Positions 3,425 to 60,777 of a DNA stretch of 62,980 bases are shown here, one piece after another. How positions within the stretch are numbered: the first letter of the stretch is position 1; every line of letters begins with the position of its first letter. The stretch is from a virus. Its lineage: Duplodnaviria > Caudoviricetes. The stretch is taken from the IMG/VR virus record IMGVR_UViG_3300025030_000105, positions 1-62,980 of that record; one strand, written 5' to 3'. The notes beneath the pieces were generated by a model. That model did no database searches. It had not been told where the DNA came from and worked only from the letters and a program-made list of their open reading frames with translations. A program made the translations under genes and the position numbers.

Positions 3425-3974
3425 TGTTACACACCGAAGGGCGGAGAGCATCCCGCCCTTGTATCTTTTTTGTTACACTAAATGTATCTAGTGATACATT
3501 CACAGAGAGCCAAAACCTTTAGTGTGGTAGTAACAGAAAGATACACCGAACAAGGTAAAATATCTCCTGATACCAAGGAAATGTCAGGGGAGCCATACAC
3601 GATTGTTGCGGTGCAACAAAGTTGATTTTGCTCGGATGGAGAGAAAAACCCTATGCGATGTAACAGAAAGATACTCCGATCCAGGAGGCGCGGCCGAAAT
3701 GCCTAACAAGTCGGTCGGCGACTTTTTACGCGAAAAACGAGAAAAACCGAAAAATGAGGTATCAAAAAGATACACAGCTTAAGGCTTCGCTTAAATGCGA
3801 TTTTGAAATCATTGAACATTTTTTCGTGTTTTTGTCAGGTTGAGGTATCAGGTGATACCGACTGAAGGGGGTGGCGGAAACGGACCGGCTGCGTAAGTCC
3901 ACCAAATGATTGAATAACCACTACTGGAATTGCTATTATATATATATTTGTATATATAGAGAGATAGATATATA

Positions 3975-8422: not shown

Positions 8423-10614
8423 CCTTAGTACGTACCGTACTTGATTTCGAGTCGGCATACGGAAAACACCCCGTCACCCAAGAGAACATCACCTTGTCTA
8501 AGATGACCTGCGAGGAGTACGTCCGGCATCCGAAGTTCAAAGCCCACGGTCTCGGGGTCAAGATCGGTAAGGAGAAAGCCTTCTACCTCTACAAGCCCGT
8601 CGACCTCGCGGCCTTCCTGAAGGAGCACCCGTGGGCGAAGTCCTACGTGATCTGCCACAATACCGCCTTTGATGGAGCCATCCTCTCCTGGCGGTGCGGG
8701 ATAAAGCCCGCGTTTTGGGGCTGTACGCTCTCCATGGCGAGGGCCATCTTCCCACACGAGTCTTCCAGCCTCGCCAACATCGCGAAGCTCCTGGGCGTCG
8801 GAGAGAAGGGCACCGAGCTTGTTCACTTCCAGGGGAAGTGGTCGCTGACGGACGACGAGCAAAGGATCATGGGCGGGTACTGCATGAACGATGTCGAACT
8901 TACCTCCGACATTTTCGACGCTTTGAAAGGACATTTTCCTCCTTCGGAGCTGAGATTGATTGACCTTACAGTTCGTCTCTTTACTGAGCCTGCGCTTGTG
9001 GTAGAGCGCGGTGTGCTCATCGACGAGTACAAGCGGGAGCGGCGCAGCAAGCGGGCATTGCTCAAGGCGTGCAACACGGATAAGACCGTCCTCGCCTCCG
9101 GTGACAAGTTCGCGGAGTTGCTGCTCGCGCTCGGGGTAGATCCGCCGAAGAAACTCAGTCCATCTAAGGTTAAAGACGGCAGGGTGGACCCGGACAGTGC
9201 AGGCGAAGCCCCGAGTGGGATACTCCCATCCTTTAAGCTCCCGGTGGGCGCCGGGCTATTTCTTTCGAAGGACGAGATGATCTCAGAGCGGGTGAGGCTG
9301 AAAGCCGAGAAGGATGTCTACCCATGGGCCTACGCTTTCGGCAAAAGCGACGAAGCGTTCAAGATGCTGCTCGACCACCCGGACCCGCAGGTTCAGGCAG
9401 TAGTTGGGGCCCGCCTCGGGGTAAAGTCTACGATCAAAGAGACCAGGAGCAAGCGGTTTTATAAGATCGGCAAGCGCGGACGGTTCCCGGTGTATCACAA
9501 CTACTACGGTGCGAGGACGGGCCGAGACAGTGGTGGGGACAAGCAGAACACAACTAACCTAAATCGTGTGAACCCAAAAGACCCAACGTCCGGCGCCCTC
9601 CGGCGCTCACTGCACGCTATTCCCGGCCACACCTTAGTGGTTCGCGACCTTGGGCAGATCGAGGCGCGGAAACTCGCCTATACGGCAGGACAAGAAGACC
9701 TCCTAGAGTTGTTTCGCACCGGCGGAGACCCATACAACCGGCAGGCGTCGAAGATCTTCGGATATGAAGTAGACAGGAAAAGCGAGGCGCACTGGTTGGA
9801 AGGACTAGTAGGAAAATCAAGTACTTTGGGCAACGGCTACGGCATGGGCTGGGGGAAATTCCAAGAGTCCCTTCGCGTGGGGTTCATGGGTGCTCCTCCG
9901 CTTCTCTTCGACCGGGTTGCTGCAGAGAAACTCGGGGCGGATATTGACGTGTTCTCCAACCAGCGAAGTTACAAAAAAGGTTGTGCGTTTCTGCGTGACG
10001 AGGCCCTTGCTCTGAAGCCGCTGAACGTAAGCGAGGAGGCGCATCTCTGGCACTGCGCAGCGGTCAAGCAGATCGTCGATAAGTACCGGGAGAGTAACGG
10101 AGCCATCGTCGCGTTCTGGAAAGAAGCGGGACAGGCGCTCCATGCGATAGAGCAGGGCGAAGAAATCTCAGTAGGCAAGCGCGGAATGGTGACAACCTGC
10201 AAGGAGGGTTTTCGGTTGCCGAACGGCATGAAGATACGGTACCATAAACTGCGGAGCAACGAGAGCGGAGAGTTCCGGTATCTTTCTAATTTCCGGAAAA
10301 AGGAATGGTCGTACATCTACGGTGGCAAGGCCGTTGAAAATATCATCCAGGCGCTCGCCAGGATCGTGCTGACCGACCAGATGCTGAATATCGACAGGTG
10401 GCTCAAAGCGCAGAGGTTACGGGACAGGAAAGGAACATACCAGATTGTTACTTCGACATACGACGAGGTCGTAGCCTGCGTCCCGCTGTACCGGGCCGAA
10501 GAGTGCCTGGAGATGATGAAAGTCGAGATGGCAACCGCGCCGACGTGGTGCGCCGACCTGCCGCTGAAGTCGAGTGGAGGATATGCTGTCTCCTACGGAG
10601 ATGTTGATAAATAA
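8419..10614 (+). CDS. polA: Family A DNA polymerase with 3'-5' exonuclease domain
   Basis: ExoI LDFES, ExoII HNTAFD, ExoIII YCMND; motif A DLGQIEAR; motif B K.STLGNGYG; ENIIQ; motif C YDE. Confidence 0.92.
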   Translation: MTLVRTVLDFESAYGKHPVTQENITLSKMTCEEYVRHPKFKAHGLGVKIGKEKAFYLYKPVDLAAFLKEHPWAKSYVICHNTAFDGAILSWRCGIKPAFWGCTLSMARAIFPHESSSLANIAKLLGVGEKGTELVHFQGKWSLTDDEQRIMGGYCMNDVELTSDIFDALKGHFPPSELRLIDLTVRLFTEPALVVERGVLIDEYKRERRSKRALLKACNTDKTVLASGDKFAELLLALGVDPPKKLSPSKVKDGRVDPDSAGEAPSGILPSFKLPVGAGLFLSKDEMISERVRLKAEKDVYPWAYAFGKSDEAFKMLLDHPDPQVQAVVGARLGVKSTIKETRSKRFYKIGKRGRFPVYHNYYGARTGRDSGGDKQNTTNLNRVNPKDPTSGALRRSLHAIPGHTLVVRDLGQIEARKLAYTAGQEDLLELFRTGGDPYNRQASKIFGYEVDRKSEAHWLEGLVGKSSTLGNGYGMGWGKFQESLRVGFMGAPPLLFDRVAAEKLGADIDVFSNQRSYKKGCAFLRDEALALKPLNVSEEAHLWHCAAVKQIVDKYRESNGAIVAFWKEAGQALHAIEQGEEISVGKRGMVTTCKEGFRLPNGMKIRYHKLRSNESGEFRYLSNFRKKEWSYIYGGKAVENIIQALARIVLTDQMLNIDRWLKAQRLRDRKGTYQIVTSTYDEVVACVPLYRAEECLEMMKVEMATAPTWCADLPLKSSGGYAVSYGDVDK

Positions 10615-10752: not shown

Positions 10753-10829
10753 CTGCGCGTAGCTCAGTCTGGTAGAGTACCTGGCTTGGACCCAGGGAGT
10801 CGCGTGTTCGAATCACGCCACGCAGACCA
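10753..10829 (+). tRNA. tRNA-Pro(TGG)
   Basis: Cloverleaf with D arm GCTC/GAGT, anticodon stem CCTGG/CCAGG and loop CT-TGG-AC, TTCGAAT T loop, encoded CCA. Confidence 0.96.
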
Positions 10830-10853
10830 TTAAAATTACATAAGGAGAGCAAC

Positions 10854-12047
10854 ATGAAACAGATCATTGCTACCGACCGAGTACCTATTAAGTTGTGGCT
10901 TACTGACATCGAAGCAGGGGCACTTGCGCAGGCTAGAAACCTCGCAAACCTTCCATTCGTCTTCAAGCACATTGCTATTATGCCGGACGCTCACCAAGGC
11001 TACGGGATGCCCATAGGTGGCGTAATGGCGACCCAAGACGTCGTCGTTCCGAACGCTGTTGGCGTGGATATTGGTTGCGGAATGTGCGCCGTGAGGACCT
11101 CGCTCACTGATCTTGATCAAGAGGCGCTGCGTCGGATTATGGGAGGGTCGAATGAGTGTAAAGGAGGTATTAGGGGCAAGGTTCCTGTAGGGTTCGGGCA
11201 TCACTCAAAGAGGCAAAGCGAGGGTATTATGCCTGATATAGATTTCATGACTGACGACCTGCCTATCGTAAAACGAGAATATTTTTCCGCGCTGAAACAG
11301 ATAGGAACTCTTGGTGGCGGTAATCATTTCATTGAGATCCAAAAAGGTAGTGACGGTTTTATCTGGGTAATGATTCACTCCGGCAGCCGCAATATCGGCT
11401 ACCAGGTCGCGAAGTACTACAACAATCTGGCGATTTCGCTGAACGAGAAATGGCACTGCGCAGTACCCGCAACTTGGCAGCTTGCGTTCTTTCCTCTTGA
11501 CTCTGCTGAAGGTCAGAGCTACCTCACCGAGATGCAATACTGTGTAGACTTCGCCCTTGCAAGTCGGGAACTCATGATGAGCAACACACTCCTCAGCATT
11601 TCTGAAGTTGTTGGGGAACAGTTTTCATGCGACGACCCGATTAACATCGCGCATAACTACGCAGCTATGGAGCACCACTTTGGCAAGAATGTAATGATCC
11701 ATCGCAAGGGAGCGACGAAGGCAATGACCGGTCAGTTAGGGATTATTCCTGGAAGCCAAGGCACAGCCAGTTATATCGTGAAGGGAAAGGGCAATGCTGA
11801 GAGCTTCTTTTCATGCTCCCACGGAGCAGGGCGCCGAATGGGTCGAGGGCAGGCGCAGCGGGAGTTGTCACTCGACGGCGAGAAAGAAAAACTTGACACC
11901 ATTGGAGTAATTCACAGCGTTCGGAATACCTCCGATCTTGACGAAGCGCCAGGAGCGTACAAGGATATTTCAGAAGTGATGAAGAACCAAGAGGACCTGG
12001 TCGAGGTAGTTGTCGAGCTTCGTCCGTTGGCGGTTATTAAGGGCTGA
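10854..12047 (+). CDS. rtcB: RtcB family RNA ligase
   Basis: MPDAHQGYG, VGVDIGCG, GTLGGGNHFIE, HSGSR, HNY, HRKGA, IPGS, SHGAGR, DEAPGAYK. Confidence 0.96.
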   Translation: MKQIIATDRVPIKLWLTDIEAGALAQARNLANLPFVFKHIAIMPDAHQGYGMPIGGVMATQDVVVPNAVGVDIGCGMCAVRTSLTDLDQEALRRIMGGSNECKGGIRGKVPVGFGHHSKRQSEGIMPDIDFMTDDLPIVKREYFSALKQIGTLGGGNHFIEIQKGSDGFIWVMIHSGSRNIGYQVAKYYNNLAISLNEKWHCAVPATWQLAFFPLDSAEGQSYLTEMQYCVDFALASRELMMSNTLLSISEVVGEQFSCDDPINIAHNYAAMEHHFGKNVMIHRKGATKAMTGQLGIIPGSQGTASYIVKGKGNAESFFSCSHGAGRRMGRGQAQRELSLDGEKEKLDTIGVIHSVRNTSDLDEAPGAYKDISEVMKNQEDLVEVVVELRPLAVIKG

Positions 12048-18371: not shown

Positions 18372-18400
18372 TTGACTATCTCTGTCAATCAGGTTACAAT
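18372..18400 (+). promoter_or_regulatory. sigma70-type promoter (twin of 10618)
   Basis: TTGACT-17 bp-TACAAT; shares TGTCAATCAGGTTACAATTA with the 10618 promoter. Confidence 0.8.
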
Positions 18401-18515: not shown

Positions 18516-19241
18516 ATGAAAAAAGCATTACAAGACGCGATACGCGAGGCAGTAAAGCCTCCATTCCGAGCAGTCGATGCTCGTGTCGAGCCCGACTTAT
18601 TGGCGCCGGGCGCCAAGATCCGATGGAAGGATGAAGCGTTCGACTGTGTCCGCAACGCGGAGGTCGTGGAGCGGCACGAGAACGAATGGTCGTATTGGGT
18701 GACTGAGGGGCGCGGTAAGTTCCTCATAAATGAGGTTCATATTGTCGCCTTCCTTGAAGGCGAAGCGAAGGAGGATGACATAGGAAATAACAGGAGGGAA
18801 AACGCGCCAAGGGCGGAGCCTCTGCCGGCTCCGCCTCCTGCAAAGAAAGCAGTAACTGCCGACGCAGTAATTGCGGCGTACATCAAGACGCGGGACGCCA
18901 TTGAGGCGGAGAAGAAGATTTACGACGAAAAGGTCGAGAAGCTGAAAGCCGTACAGGCGAAGCGTGAGCAGTGGCTGACATCCAAACTTGACAAGCTGCA
19001 GTTGACCAGCTTCAAGAAAACTGGGGTAGGCATCGCGTTCTTCAAAACGCGAACGTCGGCAACGATGGCTGATGCAACAGAGTTTGTCAAATGGGTAAGG
19101 GAGGACTGGGACGGGAGGAACCACTTTTTGGAAAAACGAGTGTCGAAGACAGCGGTTGATGACCGCATCAAGGACGGCGAGACGCCGCCTCCGGGGACGA
19201 ACTACTCCTCTACGAGGGTAGTACAAATTAACAAGGGATGA
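18516..19241 (+). CDS. Replication-module protein (coiled coil plus conserved C-terminal domain)
   Basis: YIK.RD coiled coil; LEKRVSKTAV...PPG C-terminus. Confidence 0.7.
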   Translation: MKKALQDAIREAVKPPFRAVDARVEPDLLAPGAKIRWKDEAFDCVRNAEVVERHENEWSYWVTEGRGKFLINEVHIVAFLEGEAKEDDIGNNRRENAPRAEPLPAPPPAKKAVTADAVIAAYIKTRDAIEAEKKIYDEKVEKLKAVQAKREQWLTSKLDKLQLTSFKKTGVGIAFFKTRTSATMADATEFVKWVREDWDGRNHFLEKRVSKTAVDDRIKDGETPPPGTNYSSTRVVQINKG

Positions 19242-19254
19242 GGAGGAAACAAGG

Positions 19255-19422
19255 ATGGAAAAACTTTTGAAGAACGTTACCGGGTTGTTCAACGATTTTC
19301 GTATCGACGCACAGCAACGTGCCCTGAAGGGCAACAAGGCAGCCGGTGCCAGATCGCGCAAGGTCAGCTTGGAGCTTGAGAAGCTCCTTAAAGAATGGCG
19401 GAAAATTTCCATCAAGGAGTGA
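19255..19422 (+). CDS. Hc1 / histone H1-like small protein (55 aa, not in ORF track)
   Basis: MEKLLKNV...KGNKAAGARSRKVSLELEKLLKEWRKISIKE; GNKAA..R.RK.SL signature; GGAGG SD. Confidence 0.8.
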   Translation: MEKLLKNVTGLFNDFRIDAQQRALKGNKAAGARSRKVSLELEKLLKEWRKISIKE

Positions 19423-19426
19423 AGGA

Positions 19427-19819
19427 ATGGAGAACGTACTCTTCTGCCCGAACTGCGGAGCTAAGACTCTCGAAGATCAGAACGACTGGGACTATGAGGC
19501 GGGCGACAACTACTTATGCAAGACTTGCAATACTGAGTATTGGATGAGTTGTGCAGGAGTTAAGGCGCCTACGGCAGAAGAAGACCCGAAAGAGGAGTAC
19601 AAGCCGATAATAGGTTTTAATGACTATATGTCTGCAAGATTGCTCGCGTAGGCGGCGGAACTTCTGTATGACGTTTTTGGCTCCCCGCCGCGTGTACTGG
19701 ATGTGGAGAAGTACAAAGGCGCAGGAAGCACGGTCAAATTTCGAAGGTACGCTCTTATCGGGGCGCAAACTGAACCTGCCTCGGAAGAGGCTGAACAACG
19801 TGAGGAGAAAAACAAATGA
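19427..19819 (+). pseudogene. Zn-ribbon plus major-capsid-N-terminus-like ORF with one in-frame TAG (19649-19651)
   Basis: CPNC..CKTC; the frame stays open after the TAG through STVKFRRYA to a TGA that overlaps the next ATG. Confidence 0.65.
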
Positions 19820-20877
19820 GCGAAAATTCACTAATGATACCCAATAAAGCCGAGATTCCGGCCTATATCCTCAACCCCGAGCTTGCCCGCCAGGCGAACG
19901 AAGACGCCGCCGCCGGCATTGGCACGGGCTACCCTGCCAGAATCAAGCTGATGGGCACGAAGTTTGCCATGGTCGACGGTAATGGCGAGGAGAAGCCTTA
20001 CCCGCCCAGCAAGATGATTATCGGGCCTGATGAGAATCAGTACATGCCTGTGGTGGTCCTGCGAGCGAAGAAGGCCCTGCAAAAAGCGTGGTACCTTAAG
20101 AAGTACGACCCGAACGCCGATGCTTTCCAAGCACCGGACTGCTTCAGCAACGACGGGGAGAGACCTGACCCGAGCAGCTCGTCTAAGCAATGCGAGACCT
20201 GTGCCGCGTGCCCTCATAATGCCTTTGGCTCAGGAATGGACCAGAACGGTAACGCCTCTAAAGGCAAGGCGTGTTCCGACAGTAAGATCCTTGCGGTGTT
20301 CGTGCCGAACTTCGGGGTCCATTCGTTCAAGCTGCCCCCCGCATCGCTGAAGAACTTCGGCTTGTACGTGAAGCAGTTGTCGGCCAACGGGATACCGTTG
20401 GGGACAGTAAAAACATTGGTCGGTTTCGATCTGGCCCAGACTTACCCTGTTCTGGTCTTCAAGTTCGGGGGGTTCCTCAAGCAGGATCACATGGCGCAAC
20501 TCGAAGAGATGGCGCTTTCTCCTGAGGTTGATGACATTGTCAAGGGTATCTCTTCGACGCCTTCGGCGCCGGCCCTGCCCGCGCCACCCAAGCAGGTAAG
20601 TAAACCTGCCGCACCTCCTCCTGTAGAGGATGACAACATGGGGCTCGGGCTGGACGACGGCAAAGCTGCAGCAGAAGCTGAGGCGAAAGCCAAGGCAGAC
20701 GCAGCAGCGAAGAAGACCAAAGCCGCAGCCGCGAAGAAGGCTAAGGCCGACGCAGAGGCAAAAGCTGCCGCCGAGGCAGCACTTGCTGCGCAAGCTGCGG
20801 AGACACCTGCGGTATACGACCCGTCGGAAGTTTCCGATCAGGAACTGATCGACGAACTGGGACTAGATGATCTTTAA
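19816..20877 (+). CDS. Putative ssDNA-binding/recombination protein
   Basis: PDCFSNDG..PD, CxxCxxCP.N, GKAC core; Ala/Lys-rich linker; acidic C-terminal tail; position in the replication module. Confidence 0.55.
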   Translation: MSENSLMIPNKAEIPAYILNPELARQANEDAAAGIGTGYPARIKLMGTKFAMVDGNGEEKPYPPSKMIIGPDENQYMPVVVLRAKKALQKAWYLKKYDPNADAFQAPDCFSNDGERPDPSSSSKQCETCAACPHNAFGSGMDQNGNASKGKACSDSKILAVFVPNFGVHSFKLPPASLKNFGLYVKQLSANGIPLGTVKTLVGFDLAQTYPVLVFKFGGFLKQDHMAQLEEMALSPEVDDIVKGISSTPSAPALPAPPKQVSKPAAPPPVEDDNMGLGLDDGKAAAEAEAKAKADAAAKKTKAAAAKKAKADAEAKAAAEAALAAQAAETPAVYDPSEVSDQELIDELGLDDL

Positions 20878-27265: not shown

Positions 27266-30200
27266 TTACTCCCCCTGATAAACCGGCACACCAAATTGCG
27301 AAGCCACCTGTCTTTGTCTTAGACCAGTAGTTCCAACCTCGCCGAGAACCAGCCGCCTGACGGCTGGCCGTAAGTCGCTCCCGTTGATCGCAAATAACGG
27401 GAGCTTTGCATTGAAGACGGCTATCGCCGACATCGGCCCCTCAGTATCTTCGCTCTCAACGATCGCCTTGGCAGCATTGCGGATGAGTCGGCCTCTCCGT
27501 TCGGAGAGCTGAGTCCCCAGCTTATTTAAGCTGCGCTCGGCGCCCTGCGCTTTCGCTACCTCGTCAGGCTGGAAGCCGAGGCCGATCATCAAGATCTCAT
27601 CCGGGCCTATGGCCTCGTCGGAAAGGATCTTTTTCCCAGCCCCGGTCTTCAGACCGTCGGATGCAACGCGGATAGCCTTCAGCCCGTCCTTCAGCGGCTT
27701 GGGCAGGGCCTCTTCGAGTCCTCGCATGAAGTTCCCTTTGTTCACCATCTGGTCGTAGCCTTTGACCCACGACTGCGCAACGGAGAAGCTCGGGCCAATG
27801 AGGTTGCCGGCGTACCACGCAGCAAGCTGCGCTCCGTGCATGTTCTCAGGAGGTTCAGAGGAAACGCCGTACAGGTCGCCCATGCCGATACGCTTCGAGG
27901 CGTTTACGCCGACTGCGGTAGGAAGTCCATAGGAAATGATTCCTCCGAAGAGATCCCCCGCCTGCTCGTTGACCCACTTATCGAACTCCATCTCCGCGTC
28001 GTAAGGTTCGTCGTCATCGCCGCCAAAGAGGTTGGCAAGGCCGAAGACAATGCCTCCGATGATCGTACCATGTACGCCGGCCAGGGCGGCAGACATCGTG
28101 GTTACTCCGAGGAACTCCTTGAAGGCTTCCTTCTTTGTCTTCGCGTCTTCCCCTTTCAGAGATTGCATCAGCAAGATACCCATCCTGAGAGCAGTCTTTA
28201 TTCTGTACGTCTGGAACGTTGTCAGAGTCCTGACGGTATCGCCTTGCATGAACCAGCCCTTGTCGGACTTGGCGTAGTTGTAGAGCGTTCCGCCGACGAT
28301 CTCCGAGGAGTCCTCCAAAGCGGAGAAGAAATCCTTCTTCGCGTCCGTCGCCAGTTTGTAACTGGCAAGCACTGTCGCTTTACGACTCCCTAATTCTCCG
28401 TGCTGCATGGGCAGCATCGCGTAGCGCAGGATCTTACCTACGGCGGTAGTCTGTTTCCCTTGAGCGATATCGCTCGCCTCGTGGACGGCGGAGATATCAA
28501 GGTCGCCCTTGGCGAGAGACTCCCGGAGGGCAAGGAGTTCTCGCTTGTAGTCACCGGCTTTGCCTGTGCCTAGCCCCTTAATCTTCTGCAGCTTCTCAGC
28601 TGGCGAGAAGAAGTCCTCTCCGAGTTGCCGGTCGCCGACCCTGTTCTTTTCAGTAACCTTCAGGTGCAGGTCTGCGTATACTCGGTTTACATCAGCGTCG
28701 CCGTACATGGCCTCTTTACTATACTTCTTGTTGAAGGCTTTCCGAAGGCCCTCTGAGAGGGCGGCGGTCGCCTTCGGCAACGACGCGAACTTCCTTGCGA
28801 GTGCAGGGAGGGTGAGCACCGGCAACTGGGTCAACTGGACCAGGAAAGTCGATGGGGAGGTCATGTAGTAGGCCGTGCTGAACTTGCCGAGAGTCGAGGC
28901 AATCGGACTGACTCGCTCATTCTTCACGGCTTGGAACCACCTGCGTGCGTCGTTGACGAGGTGGGTTCTCATGTCCATGTTAATGGGGCCTTCTCTATCG
29001 GCGATTTTGTCTTTGTTCTCCTGTTCAAACCCTTGAATGTCTTCCTCAATCTTCCTGCCGTACTCCATCCACGCGATAGAGCCAGCGTGCCTCAGGACGT
29101 AGTCCATAGAGCTGCGGAGCATGTCGGTGCTGGCTCCGAGAACGTTCTTCCTATGAATGGAGTTTTTCAATGCGGAGGTCTCCGGCATCCACCGGAGGAT
29201 GACCTGGTTCAGGTCGGAGAAAGCGTCGGCTGCTCGGGCTTGCGCTTCGTTCACCGCGCCCGCATCTTCCAGATCAACGCCGGTCAGGTACTTTGCCTCA
29301 AGGGCCTTGCCGAGCTGCTCTCGCAGAGCCTGCGGGATAACGGCTTCGCCCTTCTGTGTCTCTCTCTTCACGTCCTCGACGAAGGTGTCGGGGTCCACTC
29401 CCTGGGCTTCCATCTGCTTTCTGAAGACGCGGCGTTCTCCAGGGGAGGTAAAGAACTCAGTCTGCTCCCGACCATCTTGTGTCGTGAACTTCAGGATATA
29501 CTCGCCATACCGCGACAGCGGTACATAGATGCCTCTCAGCTTGCCGAACGTAGCGTTGAACCGGGTCAGCAGTTGTTCGCGGAGCGTTGGGTTGCCTTCG
29601 GACGAAGCCTCAATTACTGCGAGGAGATTATTTCTCTCCCGCTCCCGGATGGACGCCAGATAGTCGACAATCTTTTTCGCCTGCTCCTGCTCAACCGGTT
29701 TTAACCGGTCCCACGCTGCGCGGGTCTCCGCGTATGCTTCGGCGAAGGTCTTGCCGGTCGACTTCTTCATTCCTTCATCTTTCCAAGCCTTCTCGGTATT
29801 GCTCCGCTGGAGCCCTGCCGGCCCCGACTTATCAAACCAGTCTTGCTCAGTCTCGTCGAGCCAGGGGGTCATCTGATTGAAGGTCCCAGTGAGGAGGAGA
29901 TTGTTGAACGCTTCCAGCCCAGAGTTTTTCTTCGCGACAGCTTCCGCATCTTGGTAGATGGCGTAGAAATCATCTGGAAGCTGCGCTTTGATGGCCTCCA
30001 TTTTCTTGTTGTGGGTGTCGATGTCTTTCAGCCAGTGGATCTTCTTGCCGAGAGTTTGGGCGAGGTGTGACCTAGGAGTTACTGCCAGCCACTGCTTGGC
30101 GTACTTGACGTAGATATCACGGAGCCTACTCTTCGGATCCTGCACTGCGTCGAGGATTTGGTCGATCTTCGCCTGCCCTTCTTTCATTTTGTTGGAGACT

Positions 30201-33200
30201 ACGGAGAACAGTTGCTCGGGCTGATCCAGCCTTGCAAGTATCTTGCTCAGGTCTCCAGTAGGAGCCTGATCCTCAGTCCTGCGAGACCAAGCCTTCGTAC
30301 CTTGTGCGAACAACGCAACGAGGTCAGATTCAGAGAGCCTGCCGTGGGCGATGCCGAGTCGGTAGAGAGCGGCCTTGACGGCTGAGATTATTCGCTTGAA
30401 GATGGAGTGTTTCCTATTCGCAGGGTCTTGGAGGAAATACATTAATCCTTCTTCCCCTCGGAACCCTTTCGCCGTATCGGCAGGCACCTTAGCAAACGCG
30501 GCCTTGATCGCGGGATTATTCTTGGCGAGAATGGCGAAGTCCTTCAGAATCGCAGATCGCTTGGCGCGGAAGACTTTGTCTTCGTTGAGTAGGGCATGGC
30601 CGGCTTCGTGCCGCATTACATCGACTGCGTCGCCGGGCTTGAGGTTGTCGGAGAAAAGAAAAACTTTTTTCTGGCTGGGGAAGTAAGAGCCGGCTATTTC
30701 CCCGTTCTTGGAAAAGATAGCAGTGATTTGAATATCTTCGTCATTGAAAATGACGTAGTTGTATGTTCCCCCACCCTGTGCATCACTCACTGCCTTGAGG
30801 AGTGCAGGCGACGGGTCATACCCAGAAAGTTTGCCGCTCAGAGCCGCACTGATCGCTTGGGCTGGGTAATCATAGCCGAGCCAGTCGTCAGCTACTAGAG
30901 CTTTAAGGATTGCTTCGTTCTTCGGTGAAAATGTGCCGGTGCCGATAAGCTCTTCGACTTCAACGAGATCAGCGTCTTCTGGGAGTTCTTTCAGGAACTC
31001 CGTTTTGATATCTTTTAGCGGACGATTCCTGCTCGTGCCGTCTAGGTATTTTATACCGCGGATGCCTGCAGCGTGCAAGAAACTGCTTGCTTCAGCATCC
31101 GTCCCGAGTATCTTGGATAGGTCCCTATAGAAATACGACCCGTTGAAATTGCTTTTGTTTTTGTCAAGGAAATCGGCAAACTCAACCATCTTGGAATAGG
31201 TGGGGTTCGCATCAGAGTACCGTCTGTTCGCTTCCAGCTTGAAACGATTTACGATGTTATTCTTCTGGTCGCTCAGCGGTTTATCCCATAGTAAATACTC
31301 GTCCTCGGCAGGGGCTAGTTCTACTTGGTAGAGTTTGCCTTTACTATAAACTTTCTGTGCTGCCGCTCGCACCTTATTGTACAACTCTCGTCCAACTGTC
31401 TCGATGTAAAACCCGTCGTGTCCTGCTAGAGTCTTAGCAAGTAACCCTTGAAGCGCAAACGATTTATCCTCTCCCCACCCGCCTTCCGCCGTCATCTTGT
31501 CCCACACCTCGGCAGTAAGTCCTGGTTCTTTTGCTTCGAATAAAGATGCGTCGATATACTTAGGGCTGGCAGACAACTTGTCTTTGTACCACCCAGCAAC
31601 CTCTCTCGACCCGGCAAAATATAAACCATACCCGTAAGCCTGCGCGCCTTCGCCGGTGCCGATCTTCGACGAAGAGAATTTATCGACATCATGCGGAGTC
31701 CCATGCCATGCTACCATCTTCAGGAACGCTTTTTGCATCTGCCGAGGCAGTTCGTTCGCGTTCCGCACAACTTCGAGTTTCCCTCGTTTCACAAGGTTGT
31801 CATAGCCCTTGCCGAGGAAAGATTTCAGATCCTTCTGCACCTGGGCAACGAAGGTGCTGCCGCCTGCACTTCGCGCTTGCGCCTGCAGATGCCCTGAGAC
31901 CTCAGTACTCGCCAACTGCGCTGCGATAGACAACGCCTCACTGAACGCTGTAGTGTGCTCCGCATCGATACCGAGGACCTGCATGACTTTCTCGACGAGG
32001 GCGTCCCACGCACTGCGGAGTTTCCCACCGGTCTTAATTTGTGTGCTTTTAAGTACCCCTTGGAATTGGGCCGAGGAGAACGCCTGGGCCAGGAACTCCT
32101 GCTCGTTGAGGAGCCCGTAGCCGATCTGCTCCATGCCAGACAACTCTCCGGCGAGGAACTTGTTCTTGAAGGTCTTGCTGCCGCCGGCGATCTCAATGTT
32201 CGAGATCGTGTCCTTTGAGATAAGCCCTAGCTTGGTGACTTGAGTCTTTACCTGGGCCATGACCTCTTTCACCCGCTTCTGCATATCAGGCCTGATTTTT
32301 AGTTCCCTCACAGTCACGGAGTGGACCAGCTCGTGGAGAGAGGTTGGTGCGTTCTTCAGGTCCTTGACCGTGATCTCATTCTTGCCAGGGAGGTAGCCCG
32401 CAGTTTTCGCCACCGGGTCAACCTTGACCGCTGACTCAAGTTTCGAGCCTGGGGTGAACGACTTAAGGAAGCCCCCGAGCTTCTTGACGTTTTCGTCCGG
32501 AGATTGTTCGAGCGTAGCAAACAGGTCGCCTGTGGTGATTGTCTGCTTTGTCGCCGTCTCGGAGAGTGTATCGAGAGCTTCGAAAGAAGCTCCGGTAGGA
32601 GCTACTGCTCCCCTGTCGTCAGATAATTGAACACCCTCTTGCACAGGAGCAGCCATACTCCCTGCGGGGACTTTAGGTACTGGTGCAGGGGCTTGATCCC
32701 CAGTGAGGGCTCCACCAGGAGGTAGTACTTCGTCCGGGACTGAGAACTCATCGTTTACTCCTTGCGCAACTTCCGCGCTTTGTCCCGCAGTGCCTGCAGG
32801 TGCTCCGAGATTTCCCGTTGACGGGCCAAGAACTCCCTCTCCTGTTTGGAGAGTATCTGCACCGGCCATCTGAGCCGGATCTTGTTGAAGATCAGCATCT
32901 TCCCTCCTTAGGTCCTCCTGGACCTGCAATCGATCAAAAGCTACGCGTCGCTTGCGGACATCGGCTTCGTCCTGCACTGCTTGCGCAGAGTCTGCCAGAT
33001 CGTAAAGAATGTCGTTCGTTTCAGAGCCTGTTTCTTCGGTTGCCCTTCTGGCCTTGAGTTCACCCTCAGCAACTTGGTTCCTGAACGACGTAGCCTTGTT
33101 CTCGGTAAACCAATTCAATTTCTCCGCAGGCGTCATCCCGGCGGTCTCCGCCTGAACGTCCTGAATTGTTTTCCCTGCAGGCGGCAGATAACTCCACACC

Positions 33201-34570
33201 TCCTCGCCGATAGCGAGGTTCGTCGACGTAGGGGCCGACGGCCTCATCGGCAATTCTTCAACTACCGGCTTCGCCTCTTTCTCAGCGAGGACTTCTTCGA
33301 GGTTGCCTGCCGCTACTGCGGCGGCTGCATCGCTTACAGCGATGTCTACCGTGCGGTCTCCGACCGTGACGGTCGCTACGCCGTCTTCGACTTTGTCGAT
33401 CTTCACCTCTTCAGGTGTAACTTGGTTCAGCGTTTCCGCTTGAACTGTGTTCGTCACCGGGTCGGCCTGTTCCTCCCGAATGACGTTCGCAACTCTTCGG
33501 ATAGGGAGACCTGCGGCGATGTCTTCTTTCGCCCCAACCAGCCACTGATCAGCATCCGGTACCTTATTTGCTACAGCCTGCTTGTGGAGTTCATCTACGA
33601 CGGCTTGTCGTTGCTCCGGCGTTGCCGACGTAGGATCTTCGATTATGGTGTTTACGGCTTTTGCGCTTCTCGCATTGCTGTAGTTCACATGAAGTCCGAA
33701 TGGAGCAAGGAACGCAGTCATGCCGAGGGTAGGACCGACGACGGCTTTCATTTGTTCAAGCGGAGAGACATCAACGCCCGCTTCTCGTTCTACGCTTGCC
33801 TGCAGCCCAGCCTGGCCGATCTCGGTTCCTACTTCGCCGATGGCGGTATTCACAAGCCCCTTGGCGAACGGCTTCCAGACTGCAGTATCCGTCGCCGCCT
33901 TAATCGTACCGGCTACGGTCGGCGCTGCGGCTTTGCCGAGAGCTTTCCCTGCTATGCCTACGAACTTGCCTCCAACGAAAGTGCCTGCAGCTTCGCCTGC
34001 ACCCTCAATAAATAGGTTCTTCCAGCCTGCGGCTCTGGCTACTTCGTCCGAAGCACCTGCGCCCTTGACAGACTCTAAGGTTTGTTGACCTTGCTGCATA
34101 GCGGCGGGGACAGAGCCGAGAACCGACGAGATACCAAGCCCTACAGCCCCACCTACGGCGAGTTCCGGAGCGGCGGCACCGAGAGCGGCGAGACCCCCGC
34201 CTACGATGAGCGGGGCGGCTATGGATGGGGCGAGCATCTGCCCACCTTCGGCGAGAGCGTTAACTACCGCACCGTGTTCGCCAGGGCGAAGTTTGTTCTC
34301 TGGTAGCTCCTGTCTAGTCTTGGCGGCGTCGGCGATGGACTTCCCTGCGTCGTATACGCCCTGTCTGAAACCTCCACCAGTAGGCTCTCCGAGCCACTGC
34401 ATGGCCTGACCGGCTTGAAGAGGGATCCCCTCAGTTACGCCGGTACGGAGCCCGGTGCCGATCTCTCCGAGTGCGGTGCGAGGTTTCTGCCGGATGCCTC
34501 CGGTTGGGGCCAATAAAGCATCAAATGTGCTGCCCCCAGAAGAGGCAAGAAGGTCGTCGAACTCAGCCAT
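27266..34570 (-). CDS. Giant polyvalent internal virion (ejection) protein
   Basis: 2434 aa; two HExxH zincin motifs (HELVH, HEAGH), ART-like WHGT..F....GTGEG.QAYG.GLYF domain, YVPLSRYG (PLxRFG-like), hydrophobic N- and C-terminal segments. Confidence 0.82.
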   Translation of the reverse strand: MAEFDDLLASSGGSTFDALLAPTGGIRQKPRTALGEIGTGLRTGVTEGIPLQAGQAMQWLGEPTGGGFRQGVYDAGKSIADAAKTRQELPENKLRPGEHGAVVNALAEGGQMLAPSIAAPLIVGGGLAALGAAAPELAVGGAVGLGISSVLGSVPAAMQQGQQTLESVKGAGASDEVARAAGWKNLFIEGAGEAAGTFVGGKFVGIAGKALGKAAAPTVAGTIKAATDTAVWKPFAKGLVNTAIGEVGTEIGQAGLQASVEREAGVDVSPLEQMKAVVGPTLGMTAFLAPFGLHVNYSNARSAKAVNTIIEDPTSATPEQRQAVVDELHKQAVANKVPDADQWLVGAKEDIAAGLPIRRVANVIREEQADPVTNTVQAETLNQVTPEEVKIDKVEDGVATVTVGDRTVDIAVSDAAAAVAAGNLEEVLAEKEAKPVVEELPMRPSAPTSTNLAIGEEVWSYLPPAGKTIQDVQAETAGMTPAEKLNWFTENKATSFRNQVAEGELKARRATEETGSETNDILYDLADSAQAVQDEADVRKRRVAFDRLQVQEDLRREDADLQQDPAQMAGADTLQTGEGVLGPSTGNLGAPAGTAGQSAEVAQGVNDEFSVPDEVLPPGGALTGDQAPAPVPKVPAGSMAAPVQEGVQLSDDRGAVAPTGASFEALDTLSETATKQTITTGDLFATLEQSPDENVKKLGGFLKSFTPGSKLESAVKVDPVAKTAGYLPGKNEITVKDLKNAPTSLHELVHSVTVRELKIRPDMQKRVKEVMAQVKTQVTKLGLISKDTISNIEIAGGSKTFKNKFLAGELSGMEQIGYGLLNEQEFLAQAFSSAQFQGVLKSTQIKTGGKLRSAWDALVEKVMQVLGIDAEHTTAFSEALSIAAQLASTEVSGHLQAQARSAGGSTFVAQVQKDLKSFLGKGYDNLVKRGKLEVVRNANELPRQMQKAFLKMVAWHGTPHDVDKFSSSKIGTGEGAQAYGYGLYFAGSREVAGWYKDKLSASPKYIDASLFEAKEPGLTAEVWDKMTAEGGWGEDKSFALQGLLAKTLAGHDGFYIETVGRELYNKVRAAAQKVYSKGKLYQVELAPAEDEYLLWDKPLSDQKNNIVNRFKLEANRRYSDANPTYSKMVEFADFLDKNKSNFNGSYFYRDLSKILGTDAEASSFLHAAGIRGIKYLDGTSRNRPLKDIKTEFLKELPEDADLVEVEELIGTGTFSPKNEAILKALVADDWLGYDYPAQAISAALSGKLSGYDPSPALLKAVSDAQGGGTYNYVIFNDEDIQITAIFSKNGEIAGSYFPSQKKVFLFSDNLKPGDAVDVMRHEAGHALLNEDKVFRAKRSAILKDFAILAKNNPAIKAAFAKVPADTAKGFRGEEGLMYFLQDPANRKHSIFKRIISAVKAALYRLGIAHGRLSESDLVALFAQGTKAWSRRTEDQAPTGDLSKILARLDQPEQLFSVVSNKMKEGQAKIDQILDAVQDPKSRLRDIYVKYAKQWLAVTPRSHLAQTLGKKIHWLKDIDTHNKKMEAIKAQLPDDFYAIYQDAEAVAKKNSGLEAFNNLLLTGTFNQMTPWLDETEQDWFDKSGPAGLQRSNTEKAWKDEGMKKSTGKTFAEAYAETRAAWDRLKPVEQEQAKKIVDYLASIRERERNNLLAVIEASSEGNPTLREQLLTRFNATFGKLRGIYVPLSRYGEYILKFTTQDGREQTEFFTSPGERRVFRKQMEAQGVDPDTFVEDVKRETQKGEAVIPQALREQLGKALEAKYLTGVDLEDAGAVNEAQARAADAFSDLNQVILRWMPETSALKNSIHRKNVLGASTDMLRSSMDYVLRHAGSIAWMEYGRKIEEDIQGFEQENKDKIADREGPINMDMRTHLVNDARRWFQAVKNERVSPIASTLGKFSTAYYMTSPSTFLVQLTQLPVLTLPALARKFASLPKATAALSEGLRKAFNKKYSKEAMYGDADVNRVYADLHLKVTEKNRVGDRQLGEDFFSPAEKLQKIKGLGTGKAGDYKRELLALRESLAKGDLDISAVHEASDIAQGKQTTAVGKILRYAMLPMQHGELGSRKATVLASYKLATDAKKDFFSALEDSSEIVGGTLYNYAKSDKGWFMQGDTVRTLTTFQTYRIKTALRMGILLMQSLKGEDAKTKKEAFKEFLGVTTMSAALAGVHGTIIGGIVFGLANLFGGDDDEPYDAEMEFDKWVNEQAGDLFGGIISYGLPTAVGVNASKRIGMGDLYGVSSEPPENMHGAQLAAWYAGNLIGPSFSVAQSWVKGYDQMVNKGNFMRGLEEALPKPLKDGLKAIRVASDGLKTGAGKKILSDEAIGPDEILMIGLGFQPDEVAKAQGAERSLNKLGTQLSERRGRLIRNAAKAIVESEDTEGPMSAIAVFNAKLPLFAINGSDLRPAVRRLVLGEVGTTGLRQRQVASQFGVPVYQGE

Positions 34571-39279: not shown

Positions 39280-39758
39280 CAGCGTGCCTTGCGTTTGAGG
39301 AATACCGGGGCGAGGGCGAGGAAGTCGAGAGAGAAGTTGCCGGTACCTGCGACCCGAACCTTCCAATACCGAGCCTTGCCGTACAGATATTTCTTCAAGG
39401 TCTTGAACATGTCCTGCTGGACTTGGCCGGTCTTCGTCGGAGCGAGAGTGTAGCTCCGCGCATGTGCGGTGTCTTCATCACCAGTCAGGGTAACGGTAAC
39501 GTTTCCTACGGACTCGTAACCGATGTCATAAGCTTCGATGCTCTTCTGCTCTCTGCTCTCGAAGTCGTGCGTTGGAGTGTCCAGCCACCAGGAGATTGCG
39601 GTCCCTGCGTCAGTCGTCCCGCCTTCTTCGAAAATCCCGGTGTCGCCAAACATGACGAGTTTGCCATTGAACTCGACGACGGAGTCGAAGGGCATATTGG
39701 TGTACTGACTCGGCGCCTTATTCATGGTGTTCATTGCGATGGTAAGTCTGTCAGACAT
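39279..39758 (-). CDS. Tail protein
   Basis: MN..N.A.SQY.N..F.S....G...K.RYW pattern. Confidence 0.6.
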   Translation of the reverse strand: MSDRLTIAMNTMNKAPSQYTNMPFDSVVEFNGKLVMFGDTGIFEEGGTTDAGTAISWWLDTPTHDFESREQKSIEAYDIGYESVGNVTVTLTGDEDTAHARSYTLAPTKTGQVQQDMFKTLKKYLYGKARYWKVRVAGTGNFSLDFLALAPVFLKRKAR

Positions 39759-39770
39759 GCTGTCTTCCTC

Positions 39771-40868
39771 CTATGAAGGCCTCGTATACGAAAGAATGTA
39801 ATCGTCAAACCTTGCCATAGCCGCGCCTTCGAGGTAGAACTTAGGGACCGGGAGAGAGAAAACCAGACTGGCTGAGATGGCCTCATAGGAGGACATAAGT
39901 ATCTCCGGTACCGGGAGATCGAAGATGATCGATCCAACAGTCCCAACAGACCCTGAGAGGAGGACTTGGAGAGGGGGGATCTCCAGGAGGAGGACTCCCA
40001 GGGTCTGTTGGCTTGCTGTGAAACTTGTGATAATCGCCGGAAGAGAAATTTGTAATTGGGCGAGCTGGCCGACCGTCCCTTCAAGAAGGACTTCGAGCGC
40101 CGGGAAGTTCAGGTGCAGGTCGGCGGCGAGGCCGGTCGTGCCTGTGAGCGCCGCTTCGATTACTGCGAGGTCGAAGGCTAAGGCTGCACCAGTCTGAGCG
40201 TCGAAGACGAGGGGCGGGAGGTCGAGGTCTAGTGAGCAGGTCGCCCCGGTTACTGCGGTAGCAGTAAACTCTTGGAACGGGATCTCCAGTTCGAGACTGG
40301 AGCCTGCGTTGAGCAGAACCTCCGGTACTGGTAGGTCGAAGGCAAGCCAGGCTGGTGCGGAAGTCTCGCCGAAGAACTCGATTACTGGAAGAGATACGAC
40401 GAGGTCGCAGTTTACCCCTCTTGCTTCGATCGCTACTGCGATGGGCGGAAGCTCAACAACTATGCTGGCACTAATGGTAAGTGTACCTGACATAGTCGCG
40501 TCGTCGCTTCCAGTCTCGACTGCTCCTACGGTTCCTGAGACAACTACTTCGCCTGCGACATCGGCGGTATCACCCCCTGTCTCGGCAACAGTTAGAGTTC
40601 CATAAGTGTAGAGTCCTGATGTGCCGTAGGCTTCGGCGGTGTCGCTCCCGGTCTCGGTTGCGTCCATCGTCCCTGTCGAGTGGACCGTAAGCCCGGCCAA
40701 CGCGGCAGTGTCACTGCCGGTCTCATTCGCTGCTATGGTCCCGGCAATGCCGGGGACGGTCGCGTCGATAACGCCGACTTCGATATACTGCTGGGTTACC
40801 CGCGCCGTTCTTGTAGAAGGCTCAACACCGACCTCGATATATTGTTGAGTTACGCGGGCAACTGTCAT
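39771..40868 (-). CDS. Repeat-rich tail/fibre protein
   Basis: ARVTQQYIEVGV x2, ETG(S/G)D(T/D)A x4, L.LP repeats. Confidence 0.65.
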   Translation of the reverse strand: MTVARVTQQYIEVGVEPSTRTARVTQQYIEVGVIDATVPGIAGTIAANETGSDTAALAGLTVHSTGTMDATETGSDTAEAYGTSGLYTYGTLTVAETGGDTADVAGEVVVSGTVGAVETGSDDATMSGTLTISASIVVELPPIAVAIEARGVNCDLVVSLPVIEFFGETSAPAWLAFDLPVPEVLLNAGSSLELEIPFQEFTATAVTGATCSLDLDLPPLVFDAQTGAALAFDLAVIEAALTGTTGLAADLHLNFPALEVLLEGTVGQLAQLQISLPAIITSFTASQQTLGVLLLEIPPLQVLLSGSVGTVGSIIFDLPVPEILMSSYEAISASLVFSLPVPKFYLEGAAMARFDDYILSYTRPS

Positions 40869-46996: not shown

Positions 46997-47995
46997 TTAA
47001 AGCTCTGCAGCCGCTACCTCAGCTCTGCACATCCAGAGTTGATTCAGGATGACAGCCGCGAAGTAAGTCTTCCAGCCAATCCAGCCGCGCTGGCCGAGCT
47101 GATCGCCTTCCCGAGAAGTTCCAGGGTTGACGACGAACGGGTCGAGGGCGGTCTTCCCTTTGAGCGGTGTTACCGCCGCACACTCGGCGGCGATGTAGAT
47201 GATCGGATATACGTCGGCACTGGTGCCGGTCGTGGAGATCATCGTGGTGCCGGAACCTGCTTTAAGCCCGCCGCCGTCAGCCCACGAGGTGAACACAGTA
47301 GAGGTCAGATACCGAACATCGCCGATACTGCCGATCTCAGTCGGATACGAGGACATCGAACCGTAGTCGACAACATCCTTAAAGCCGGGGATTGCTTGGA
47401 CGGTAGGTTCGAGGTCGGGATGAATAAACGCGATGAACGACGGCTTGACGGATACAGTCTCCATCTTAGCCGAGCTGCTCAGTCTTTCAGTGATGGTGGA
47501 CGCATTCTGACGCTTAAAGCCCCTCGTAATCTTCTGCTGCAGTGCTTTGGTCAGCGGAGTGTTTACATCGGTCCGCGCAGTGCCGTTAGCGAAGTACACG
47601 TTAGTGCCAGCCTTCATTACGTTGAACAACCGAGTCTCAACAGAAAGTGCCGCCTGTTTTGCGAGAATGCTGGTGTACTCTTTGATGATAGGGTCTTCGT
47701 GCGTATCGGCTACGCGGTCAGAGATACCTACCCACGCGCCGATTTGCGACAGATTTGCCTCATAGTCGGAATGCGTGATGGTGCTGGACGGAGGAGTAAC
47801 TCCCTCAGTCAGGTCTGCGATCGCTGCAGCGAGCGCCGCGTAGCGCCGAAACTTGATAGTGCTCGATGCGTTCTGCGGGATTTCATGAGTTTGCAGGAAC
47901 GGTTGCATAATAAGTGCAGGGTCAGCTCTCATAAGAAGCTTGCCAGCCACATACCCAGCCGTTCGAAGGCTAATATCACTCACTGTCATTGTCAT
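46997..47995 (-). CDS. Major capsid protein, N4-gp56 family
   Basis: TIKFRRY, LTEGVTP, EIG...VR, D.LGQRG..GWK, ILN..W..R.E. Confidence 0.92.
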   Translation of the reverse strand: MTMTVSDISLRTAGYVAGKLLMRADPALIMQPFLQTHEIPQNASSTIKFRRYAALAAAIADLTEGVTPPSSTITHSDYEANLSQIGAWVGISDRVADTHEDPIIKEYTSILAKQAALSVETRLFNVMKAGTNVYFANGTARTDVNTPLTKALQQKITRGFKRQNASTITERLSSSAKMETVSVKPSFIAFIHPDLEPTVQAIPGFKDVVDYGSMSSYPTEIGSIGDVRYLTSTVFTSWADGGGLKAGSGTTMISTTGTSADVYPIIYIAAECAAVTPLKGKTALDPFVVNPGTSREGDQLGQRGWIGWKTYFAAVILNQLWMCRAEVAAAEL

Positions 47996-60393: not shown

Positions 60394-60396
60394 CCC

Positions 60397-60777
60397 CTAG
60401 TCTCCTGAGACTACCAGGCAGATGATCTTCGCCTTGGCGGAGTTGGTAGTGTTGTTTGAACAAGCGAGCTTGTACCCTCCGACAAAGGGGACCGCAGGAT
60501 CAATTTCGATCCTGTCTGAGGCGGTTATCGCAGCCGCTAGGCTGAGGCTGACGCCGTCGATTGATTGAAAGTCGACAATGAGAGAGTCGAACGGGGTGAC
60601 TGCGTCGGCGACGACTTCTATGCCTACCAAGAAACCTGTTTCGTTCTCGACAGTCTCTGTCGGGATGGTAGCTGCTGCAGCATCTGCCGTAAATTCACTT
60701 ACCAAGCCGATCGGCTCTGTGTACTCGCCGTCGAACTGTCCTCTTCGGTACTCCAAGTCTGCCCACGATCCAGCCAT
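60397..60777 (-). CDS. Small acidic virion-like protein
   Basis: AAGGAG SD; first gene after the 60826 promoter. Confidence 0.65.
   Translation of the reverse strand: MAGSWADLEYRRGQFDGEYTEPIGLVSEFTADAAAATIPTETVENETGFLVGIEVVADAVTPFDSLIVDFQSIDGVSLSLAAAITASDRIEIDPAVPFVGGYKLACSNNTTNSAKAKIICLVVSGD

Follow-up and report, generated by a model that had tools for sequence, protein, structure and literature searches.

A zinc-ribbon gene with a capsid-like tail, probably interrupted by a nonsense codon, in a groundwater phage lineage

Here, we explored a short locus in a virus record of the class Caudoviricetes (IMG/VR IMGVR_UViG_3300025030_000105), which comprises 62,980 bp with direct terminal repeats and was analysed over its whole length (hereafter, the window). 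At this locus, an open reading frame (ORF) that starts with an ATG at position 19427 runs into an in-frame TAG at 19649-19651 and stays open beyond it, up to a TGA at 19817-19819. The arrangement had been correctly recognized in the original prediction, which was made from the letters alone, together with the ATGA overlap between the TGA at 19817-19819 and the ATG at 19816 of the next gene. Our analysis suggests that the locus is, on balance, probably a single gene, belonging to a hitherto undescribed accessory family that occurs in a lineage of groundwater phages, that the tail of the encoded protein mimics the N-arm of the major capsid protein (MCP), and that the gene is cut by a nonsense codon in this particular genome.

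An accessory gene family with uncut members

The frame beyond the TAG is the true continuation of the gene because an uncut homologue, the 129-aa protein P0004, occupies the same slot in related phage (loci L002 and L003), with an overlapping stop and start; an intact homologue, which the original prediction had suggested looking for, is thus available. A profile search of the genome matched the whole gene across one internal TAG (E 5.8e-41). Large protein collections yielded, besides P0004, the homologues P0125, P0126 and P0128-P0131 (7 uncut proteins altogether), as well as P0127, an 84-aa protein without the tail that is either broken or naturally short. The 7 uncut proteins are 27-53% identical to one another (27-42% in the comparisons with P0004) and all of them display a zinc ribbon, a helix with the pattern E.ML.[RKQ]A...L..F and a tail with the pattern G.T[IV].FRRYAP. 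The sole residues invariant in the family are the four cysteines (8/8 aligned members), M1, P8, G11, T14, D22 and G26 of the ribbon, Y58, P60 and the F-R-R-Y block of the tail.

The AlphaFold 2 (AF2) model of P0004 (predicted local distance difference test score, pLDDT, 69) consists of a three-stranded ribbon (residues 15-22, 26-31 and 37-40), a linker, a helix (64-88) and a disordered tail (pLDDT 47-65). The two CxxC knuckles and three strands that characterize zinc ribbons are all present, with the Pfam zinc-ribbon profiles (PF13240 and relatives) reaching 16.5 bits, below the gathering threshold of 25. Neither Pfam nor PHROGs contains a family for P0004. In a Foldseek comparison of the model with the PDB, nothing reached E <= 0.001, and the structures retrieved were generic zinc ribbons such as RNA polymerase subunit I chains and Trm112; the ESM Atlas offered nothing usable (best feature score 0.87, best template-modelling score 0.39). 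Searches of INPHARED with blastn and tblastn recovered no relative of the locus.

The slot is shared across related phage, and its content varies. In relatives whose helicase is 65% identical to that of the window, P0126 (L011) and P0130 (L010) are encoded in the same syntenic position, between homologues of the genes at 18516-19241 and 19816-20877, with overlapping stops and starts. At another locus (L001), where the flanking proteins are 97-100% identical to those of the window, the zinc-ribbon gene is replaced by a 96-aa gene (3634-3924), a homologue of the 92-aa gene (8900-9178) that follows the zinc-ribbon gene in L011. In a co-occurring relative represented in sequencing runs X7 and X8, position 19410 is joined to 19803 via 12 letters that replace 19411-19802, and the 5 related virus records with a completeness of 90% or more all lack the gene. 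These slot comparisons indicate that, within a narrow lineage, the gene is passed on at a fixed position, yet is often lost, replaced or broken.

Two further observations concern the relatives that carry the uncut gene. In the more distant L010 (6087-6638) and L011 (7990-8541), the homologue of the upstream gene (18516-19241 in the window) opens with a zinc ribbon of its own (CPKC...CDC), which the copy of that gene in the window does not have. Furthermore, a 9.3-kb contig encoding P0130 with the same layout as the IMG/VR locus L010 (L013, JBAZEO010000081.1) is filed in a metagenome-assembled genome of Dehalococcoidia; this assignment either points to the host or results from faulty binning.

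Likeness of the tail to the major capsid protein

The original prediction held that the read-through frame aligns with the N-terminus of the phage's own MCP, with the stop at an Arg position, and both statements stand. The read-through product includes YMSARLLA-stop-AAELLYDVFG...GSTVKFRRYA, to be compared with YVAGKLLMRADPALIMQPF...SSTIKFRRYA at the MCP N-terminus; BLASTP of the read-through product, with X at the TAG, gives 15/42 identities (E 0.003 as a single comparison), and the stop lies opposite R23 of the MCP, which is invariant in 44/44 aligned MCPs. The FRRY block, located 22 residues before the end of the read-through frame, occurs in only two places in the six-frame translation of the genome, namely, in the post-TAG frame and in the MCP. 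STVKFRRYA of the ORF and STIKFRRYA of the MCP differ in 6 of 9 codons, so that the likeness is one at the protein level.

The most compelling evidence comes from profile comparisons, which also bear out the suggestion that the tail resembles the N4-gp56 MCP family. When the family was aligned with 44 MCPs using hhalign, the P value decreased from 1.6e-5 with 2 family sequences to 2.2e-7 with 7 and 1.5e-7 with 8 (probability 94%, 42 columns, MCP residues 19-60). A profile of the C-terminal half of the family, built without the window sequence and run against the six-frame translation, gave E 1.3e-5 for the post-TAG frame and E 1.3e-3 for the MCP, the next segment being at E 4.1. Applied to 20 related virus records, the family profile matched the N-terminus of the MCP in 10 of them, with E values per record of 1.8e-4 to 5.6e-3. 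In the reciprocal search, all 8 tail-bearing members ranked right behind the MCP when queried with an MCP N-terminal profile, with one unrelated segment interspersed. Indeed, the MCP N-terminal motif ...ML.RA..L...F...T.KFRRY is present in the family, and the stretch in which the tail is most conserved coincides with the invariant one at the MCP N-terminus: F49-R50-R51-Y52 is found in 44/44 aligned MCPs, and FRRY in 68/81 of a wider set of MCP frames. Scored against 81 MCPs, the window tail has its best matches in its own sub-lineage, with its own MCP ranking 3rd; this comparison is a rank test only, as the contigs with the uncut gene (L009, L010 and L011) do not include the MCP.

A second protein points in the same direction. 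P0133, a 685-aa protein encoded in a complete 64.8-kb record of a related phage (G002) whose MCP is 56% identical to that of the window (L110 2279-4333, minus strand, equivalent to G002:C1:34778-36832), aligns through residues 27-112 with MCP residues 39-134 (hhalign P 3.7e-6 over 83 columns; TIGR04387 E 0.0022). The aligned part comprises the FRRY strand, an E-loop of reduced length and the spine helix. The last 200 residues of P0133 form a run of CxxC pairs, and ~350 residues have no recognizable fold. The MCP-like part of P0133, too, scores best against its own sub-lineage among 81 MCPs, its own MCP being 5th. No Pfam or PHROGs family matches P0133, and the window contains no homologue of it. 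Like the zinc-ribbon family, P0133 combines an MCP fragment with CxxC zinc modules away from the head genes, but its fragment is N-terminal and longer, and the protein is large. It supports the notion that MCP N-terminal pieces may be used as modules in this phage group. Small zinc-ribbon ORFs are located beside P0133. Judging from the sequence comparisons taken together, the capsid likeness of the family is in all probability real.

Status of the amber codon

The column occupied by the TAG contains a sense codon in all 8 homologues that reach it, encoding lysine in P0004 and P0129, arginine in P0126, P0127, P0128, P0130 and P0131, and glutamine in P0125; the codon at this position in L002 is AAA. 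The TAG is not an assembly error, given that the 74-aa product (P0003) recurs letter for letter on 26 contigs and that identical contigs were obtained from three further runs, X7 (record 5), X8 (record 12) and X11 (record 1), with 0 other letters across the site. With regard to polymorphism at 19649, which the original prediction had proposed to check, these results come from Logan contigs, in which minor alleles are not visible; X7 is possibly the window's own sample, and run X13 has no coverage of the site. No RNA run was among the sequencing runs listed for the locus.

The original prediction offered a choice between amber readthrough, possibly involving pyrrolysine, and recent inactivation. 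Recent inactivation agrees best with the sense codon in the homologues, whereas recoding gained no support from several lines of analysis. No suppressor tRNA was found in the phage, whose single tRNA is tRNA-Pro; the RNA downstream of the TAG folds no better than 200 shuffles (z 0.04); and an Rfam search over 19000-20300 returned no match at E <= 1. TAG, the rarest stop, terminates 9 of 84 crudely delimited ORFs; apart from the ORF studied here, the 8 others comprise ORFs of 656 aa and 365 aa in the structural arm, in line with the earlier remark that TAG is an ordinary stop elsewhere in the genome. Among the three testable marks of programmed readthrough, an open, conserved extension is present, whereas conservation of the stop in homologues and a stimulatory RNA element are not, so that two of them are missing here. 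We also considered, and rejected, translation of the tail on its own: the sole in-frame start is a GTG at 19703, with no Shine-Dalgarno-like sequence before it. Two other TAG-ended ORFs (60391-60399 and 39756-39773, minus strand) have a neighbouring gene (848 aa and 159 aa) whose ATG follows in the same frame, after 1 and 4 codons, respectively, an arrangement expected by chance for about one third of neighbours.

The divergence of the tail provides a further angle. Synonymous sites have reached saturation in the comparison of the window with L002 (proportion of synonymous differences, pS, ~0.8), and the codons of KFRRYA changed synonymously in 5 of 6 cases; because the motif was kept through these changes, the tail was under selection for most of the time that separates the two sequences. 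The proportion of nonsynonymous differences (pN) is 0.18 in the N-terminal part and 0.45 in the C-terminal part, and no dN/dS ratio was calculated given the saturation. Identity between the window protein and P0004 drops from 75% in the N-terminal part to 33% in the C-terminal part, compared with 78% to 65% and 62% to 53% in other close pairs. Against 6 outgroups, the C-terminal half of the window protein scores 80/321 identities and that of P0004 106/324, the former being lower against 5 of the 6, whereas the N-terminal half is not lower. Small as these numbers are, the mild excess divergence of the C-terminal half fits some relaxation of selection after the stop arose. Comparison with the homologues thus leads us to consider the amber codon a likely plain nonsense allele, and the gene is best annotated here as an interrupted family member, not as a recoded gene.

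Genomic context

The replication genes, namely, those for a family A DNA polymerase, RtcB, a helicase, a methyltransferase, a primase/helicase and ThyX, are located in a plus-strand arm (~1-27 kb), which holds the locus, and the minus-strand arm contains the structural genes, including that of the N4-gp56-type MCP. The earlier placement of the ORF on the strand opposite to the head module, ~28 kb away from it, is accurate, with the MCP gene at 46997-47995 on the minus strand. The features of the locus and of the MCP gene are listed in Table 1.

Table 1. Features of the zinc-ribbon locus and of the capsid gene in the window
Feature	Position	Strand	Remarks
Promoter-like site TTGACT-17-TACAAT	18372..18400	+	10/12 consensus match only, no functional support; upstream of the four-gene run 18516-20877 that holds the ORF
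Shine-Dalgarno-like AAGGAG	19414..19419	+	7 nt 5' of ATG 19427; read from sequence
Stop of upstream 55-aa gene	19420-19422	+	Read from sequence
Truncated zinc-ribbon gene, 74 aa (product P0003)	19427..19651	+	CPNC at residues 7-10, CKTC at 31-34, acidic linker, first 11 residues of the family helix, then TAG
In-frame TAG	19649..19651	+	Column is K/R/Q in homologues and invariant R23 in the MCP
Post-TAG frame, 55 codons + TGA (19817-19819)	19652..19819	+	Rest of helix, variable linker, MCP-like tail; TGA overlaps ATG 19816 (ATGA)
KFRRYA, core of tail motif G.T[IV].FRRY	19736..19753	+	FRRY invariant in 8/8 tail-bearing members
Downstream gene, 353 aa, Cys-rich, acidic C-terminal end	19816..20877	+	Own GAGGAG at 19802-19807; phrog_23155, function unknown
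MCP, N4-gp56 family	46997..47995	-	TIGR04387 E 9.5e-84; AF2 model pLDDT 77.6
MCP residues 19-60, segment apparently copied	47816..47941	-	hhalign columns; end of N-arm helix, coil, strand TIKFRRY (46-52) into E-loop

Several other features of the genome were recorded in the course of the analysis. The 353-aa protein encoded immediately downstream (19816-20877) is rich in Cys at its centre and contains a low-complexity stretch dominated by Ala, Lys and Glu; its acidic end, ...DELGLDDL, is kept in relatives. The only matches of this protein are to PHROGs families of unknown function. The tRNA-Pro(tgg) gene is located directly 5' of the RtcB RNA ligase gene (PF01139 E 5.7e-112; window positions 10753-12047 for the two genes together), a pairing that suggests repair or replacement of host-cleaved tRNA. 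A 2434-aa protein (27266-34570, minus strand) shows weak matches to polyvalent-protein domains (LPD39 E 2.2e-4 and ART-PolyVal E 5.7e-4, both below gathering thresholds) and, by domain scans, is not an N4-type virion RNA polymerase.

Possible role of the capsid-like tail

Members of this family are built from a zinc ribbon at the N-terminus, an acidic linker, the helix E.ML.[RKQ]A...L..F and, at the C-terminus, a flexible tail, G.T[IV].FRRYAP. The helix and the tail putatively copy MCP residues ~19-60, a segment comprising the last part of the N-arm and the first strand, through which the E-loop is entered. In the window, a point mutation would have turned the conserved K/R/Q codon of the helix into TAG. 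The main product would then be the 74-aa zinc ribbon without the capsid-like part, and full-length protein would be made only in traces, by near-cognate misreading. A flexible tail that seems to copy a strand of another protein, along with the arm in front of it, is what would be expected of a competitive mimic; we therefore infer that the uncut protein would act as a competitive mimic of unassembled MCP, presenting the N-arm segment to whatever reads it.

Capsid proteins are among the phage products read by bacterial immune systems. A host factor that senses the capsid protein is our favoured, if tentative, candidate for the target of this competition, in which case the uncut protein might be a decoy serving counter-defence; this choice rests on the location of the gene in the early replication operon and on its being gained, lost and broken in the manner of counter-defence genes. 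The scaffold (putatively encoded at 48014-48940) or neighbouring MCP subunits come next, with a smaller chance of being the true target. A complex prediction of the MCP with the family gave a score of 0.00 in both runs (mark 0.32), performed without controls, and weighs neither for nor against binding. Our literature searches on phage capsid decoys and mimics listed no paper on a phage-encoded decoy made of an MCP fragment, nor one on a phage gene for a separate small protein bearing a copy of the part of its own capsid protein that is prone to being read. Should the uncut members be decoys, protein-trigger mimicry would have to be added to the known classes of counter-defence; should they act on the scaffold or the MCP instead, they would represent a new kind of assembly control. 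FRRY is a short, mutable motif, and broken, deleted and replaced natural alleles are at hand.

A more elaborate scenario would combine these elements, with an early mimic of the capsid N-arm masking newly made MCP from a host sensor or timing its assembly, the TAG at the conserved basic residue, present here and perhaps once more in the P0005 lineage, serving as a selected readthrough switch that provides a low dose of mimic beside the ribbon isoform, and P0133 being a second solution to the same problem. We consider this combination very improbable.

Alternative explanations

Some of the results weigh against the interpretation of the locus as a nonsense-cut gene with a capsid-like tail. The pairwise evidence alone is borderline: with the chance level set against all 1773 six-frame segments of the genome, the best non-self match of the MCP is the post-TAG frame, at E 0.069 with the whole MCP and 0.008 with its first 80 aa, and the next, unrelated segment already follows at E 0.11. 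P0004 alone has no match to TIGR04387 at E <= 10, and a search with the full-length MCP profile does not list the tail at E <= 0.05. In the AF2 monomers, the ORF helix (64-88) and the MCP N-arm helix (10-21, followed in the MCP model by a strand at 46-52, strands at 75-91 and a helix at 102-129) do not coincide where the sequences are aligned. The strongly conserved shared core amounts to ~10 residues, so short that descent and convergence on a short motif are indistinguishable. The pairwise values, the missing profile matches and the short core would be accommodated if the likeness were due to chance, or to a short motif without common function, and the locus were simply a decaying zinc-ribbon gene. 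However, such an explanation must also contend with the profile-profile P value of 1.5e-7, with the window-free family profile that picks the MCP as its sole other hit and recovers MCP N-termini in 10 of 20 records, with the coincidence of the most conserved block of the tail and the invariant block of the MCP, and with the second MCP-fragment fusion in a related phage; we therefore rate it, too, as very improbable. Other results bear on the stop. The sequence past the TAG retains all the family-invariant residues, the frame and the ATGA overlap, and the TAG allele is stable in the contigs of three further runs, its product being found on 26 contigs. Moreover, P0005, whose ribbon shares 97% identity with that of P0004, extends exactly to the residue preceding the TAG column and ends there, either at a stop codon or at the end of the protein assembly (IMG/VR searches recovered no DNA for P0005, P0125 or P0127); in the former case, two lineages would have a stop at one and the same codon. 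These findings are what one would expect if the TAG were kept on purpose, with leaky or programmed readthrough setting a low ratio of full-length to ribbon-only product, and near-cognate reading of UAG as Gln or Lys would restore the residues of P0125 (Q) or of P0004 and P0129 (K). Such maintained or leaky readthrough nevertheless appears rather unlikely considering that 8/8 homologues have a sense codon in the column, that neither an RNA fold beyond shuffles, nor an Rfam element, nor a phage-encoded suppressor tRNA was detected, that TAG ends 8 other ORFs, that the C-terminal half of the window protein is more diverged than that of its sister, and that the end of P0005 is itself ambiguous. 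A host that routinely decodes TAG, be it as pyrrolysine or through a suppressor, would likewise be in keeping with the open frame and with TAG being the rarest stop (9/84), but TAG ends 8 other ORFs, the 656-aa and 365-aa ones of the structural arm among them, the only tRNA of the phage is tRNA-Pro, and the homologues have K, R or Q in place of TAG, leaving this possibility with hardly any probability.

With regard to function, the alternative to a host-directed decoy is an assembly or packaging factor whose tail would dock on the scaffold or the MCP in the manner of the N-arm, delaying or chaperoning assembly or carrying the ribbon into the procapsid. The copied segment is the N-arm with the first strand, and in P22 and 80alpha this part of the coat protein contacts the scaffold. 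Furthermore, the tail is C-terminal and predicted to be disordered (pLDDT 47-65), as befits a docking peptide, and the upstream neighbour of the gene matches phrog_13900, labelled 'minor head protein' (E 1.1e-16). In N4, according to the portion of the text available for PMC11445570, no scaffolding protein has been identified, and that portion contains nothing on the coat N-arm. Conversely, the gene belongs to the replication operon, on the strand opposite to the head genes, and it is absent from 5/5 near-complete related records, deleted or replaced in close strains and broken in the window. A factor of this kind should not be so dispensable, and we accordingly regard the assembly function as unlikely, if somewhat less so than maintained readthrough.

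Comparison with known systems

The closest known counterpart of the tail is the N4-gp56 MCP family itself (TIGR04387/PF25209), to which it is linked by the helix and tail that align with MCP residues ~19-60, FRRY included. The differences are substantial: only ~45 of 332 residues are matched, the E-loop, spine helix, P-domain and A-domain are all lacking, and the segment, encoded in the early arm, is attached to a zinc ribbon. Accordingly, TIGR04387 gives weak matches at profile positions 36-71 in 3 of the 8 tail-bearing members (P0002, P0125 and P0126), at 11.7-14.9 bits compared with a cut-off of 60. P0002, the window protein, accounts for the 11.7 bits over positions 39-71 of the 324-position model (E 0.12 for its tail). 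The AF2 model of P0004 contains the ribbon, one helix and the disordered tail only, without an HK97-fold body. As far as sequence and predicted fold can tell, the window protein is not a capsid protein. On the side of the ribbon, the small phage and prophage zinc-binding proteins Lar (TIGR03655) and ECs_2282 (NF047912) share the CxxC...CxxC arrangement and have no capsid-like tail. TIGR03655 yields weak matches in 8/8 tail-bearing members (E 2.7e-4 to 0.23, 11.8-21.2 bits), the best being P0131 with 21.2 bits compared with a cut-off of 39.6; zinc ribbons cross-match readily, and none of the Lar and ECs_2282 scores reaches its curated cut-off.

The coat/A1 pair of phage Qbeta resembles the locus in having an in-frame stop followed by a meaningful open extension. 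In Qbeta, however, the stop is fixed and the extension is needed, the low ratio of the extended product being set by the kept stop, whereas at the locus described here the stop is replaced by a sense codon in the homologues, and the searches for a stimulatory context were negative. Encapsulin cargo-loading peptides and the capsid-targeting sequence of T4 present another parallel, as short disordered terminal peptides that dock on HK97-fold shells and are attached to an unrelated small domain; they differ in showing no sequence relation to the family and in not copying the shell protein. Finally, there are the capsid-sensing defences: CapRel senses the MCP, and Lit senses the Gol peptide of T4 gp23. 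These systems demonstrate that a short segment of the MCP can be the unit that a host reads and, hence, what a decoy must imitate; in the case of the family described here, a copied trigger could activate such a sensor as well as block it.

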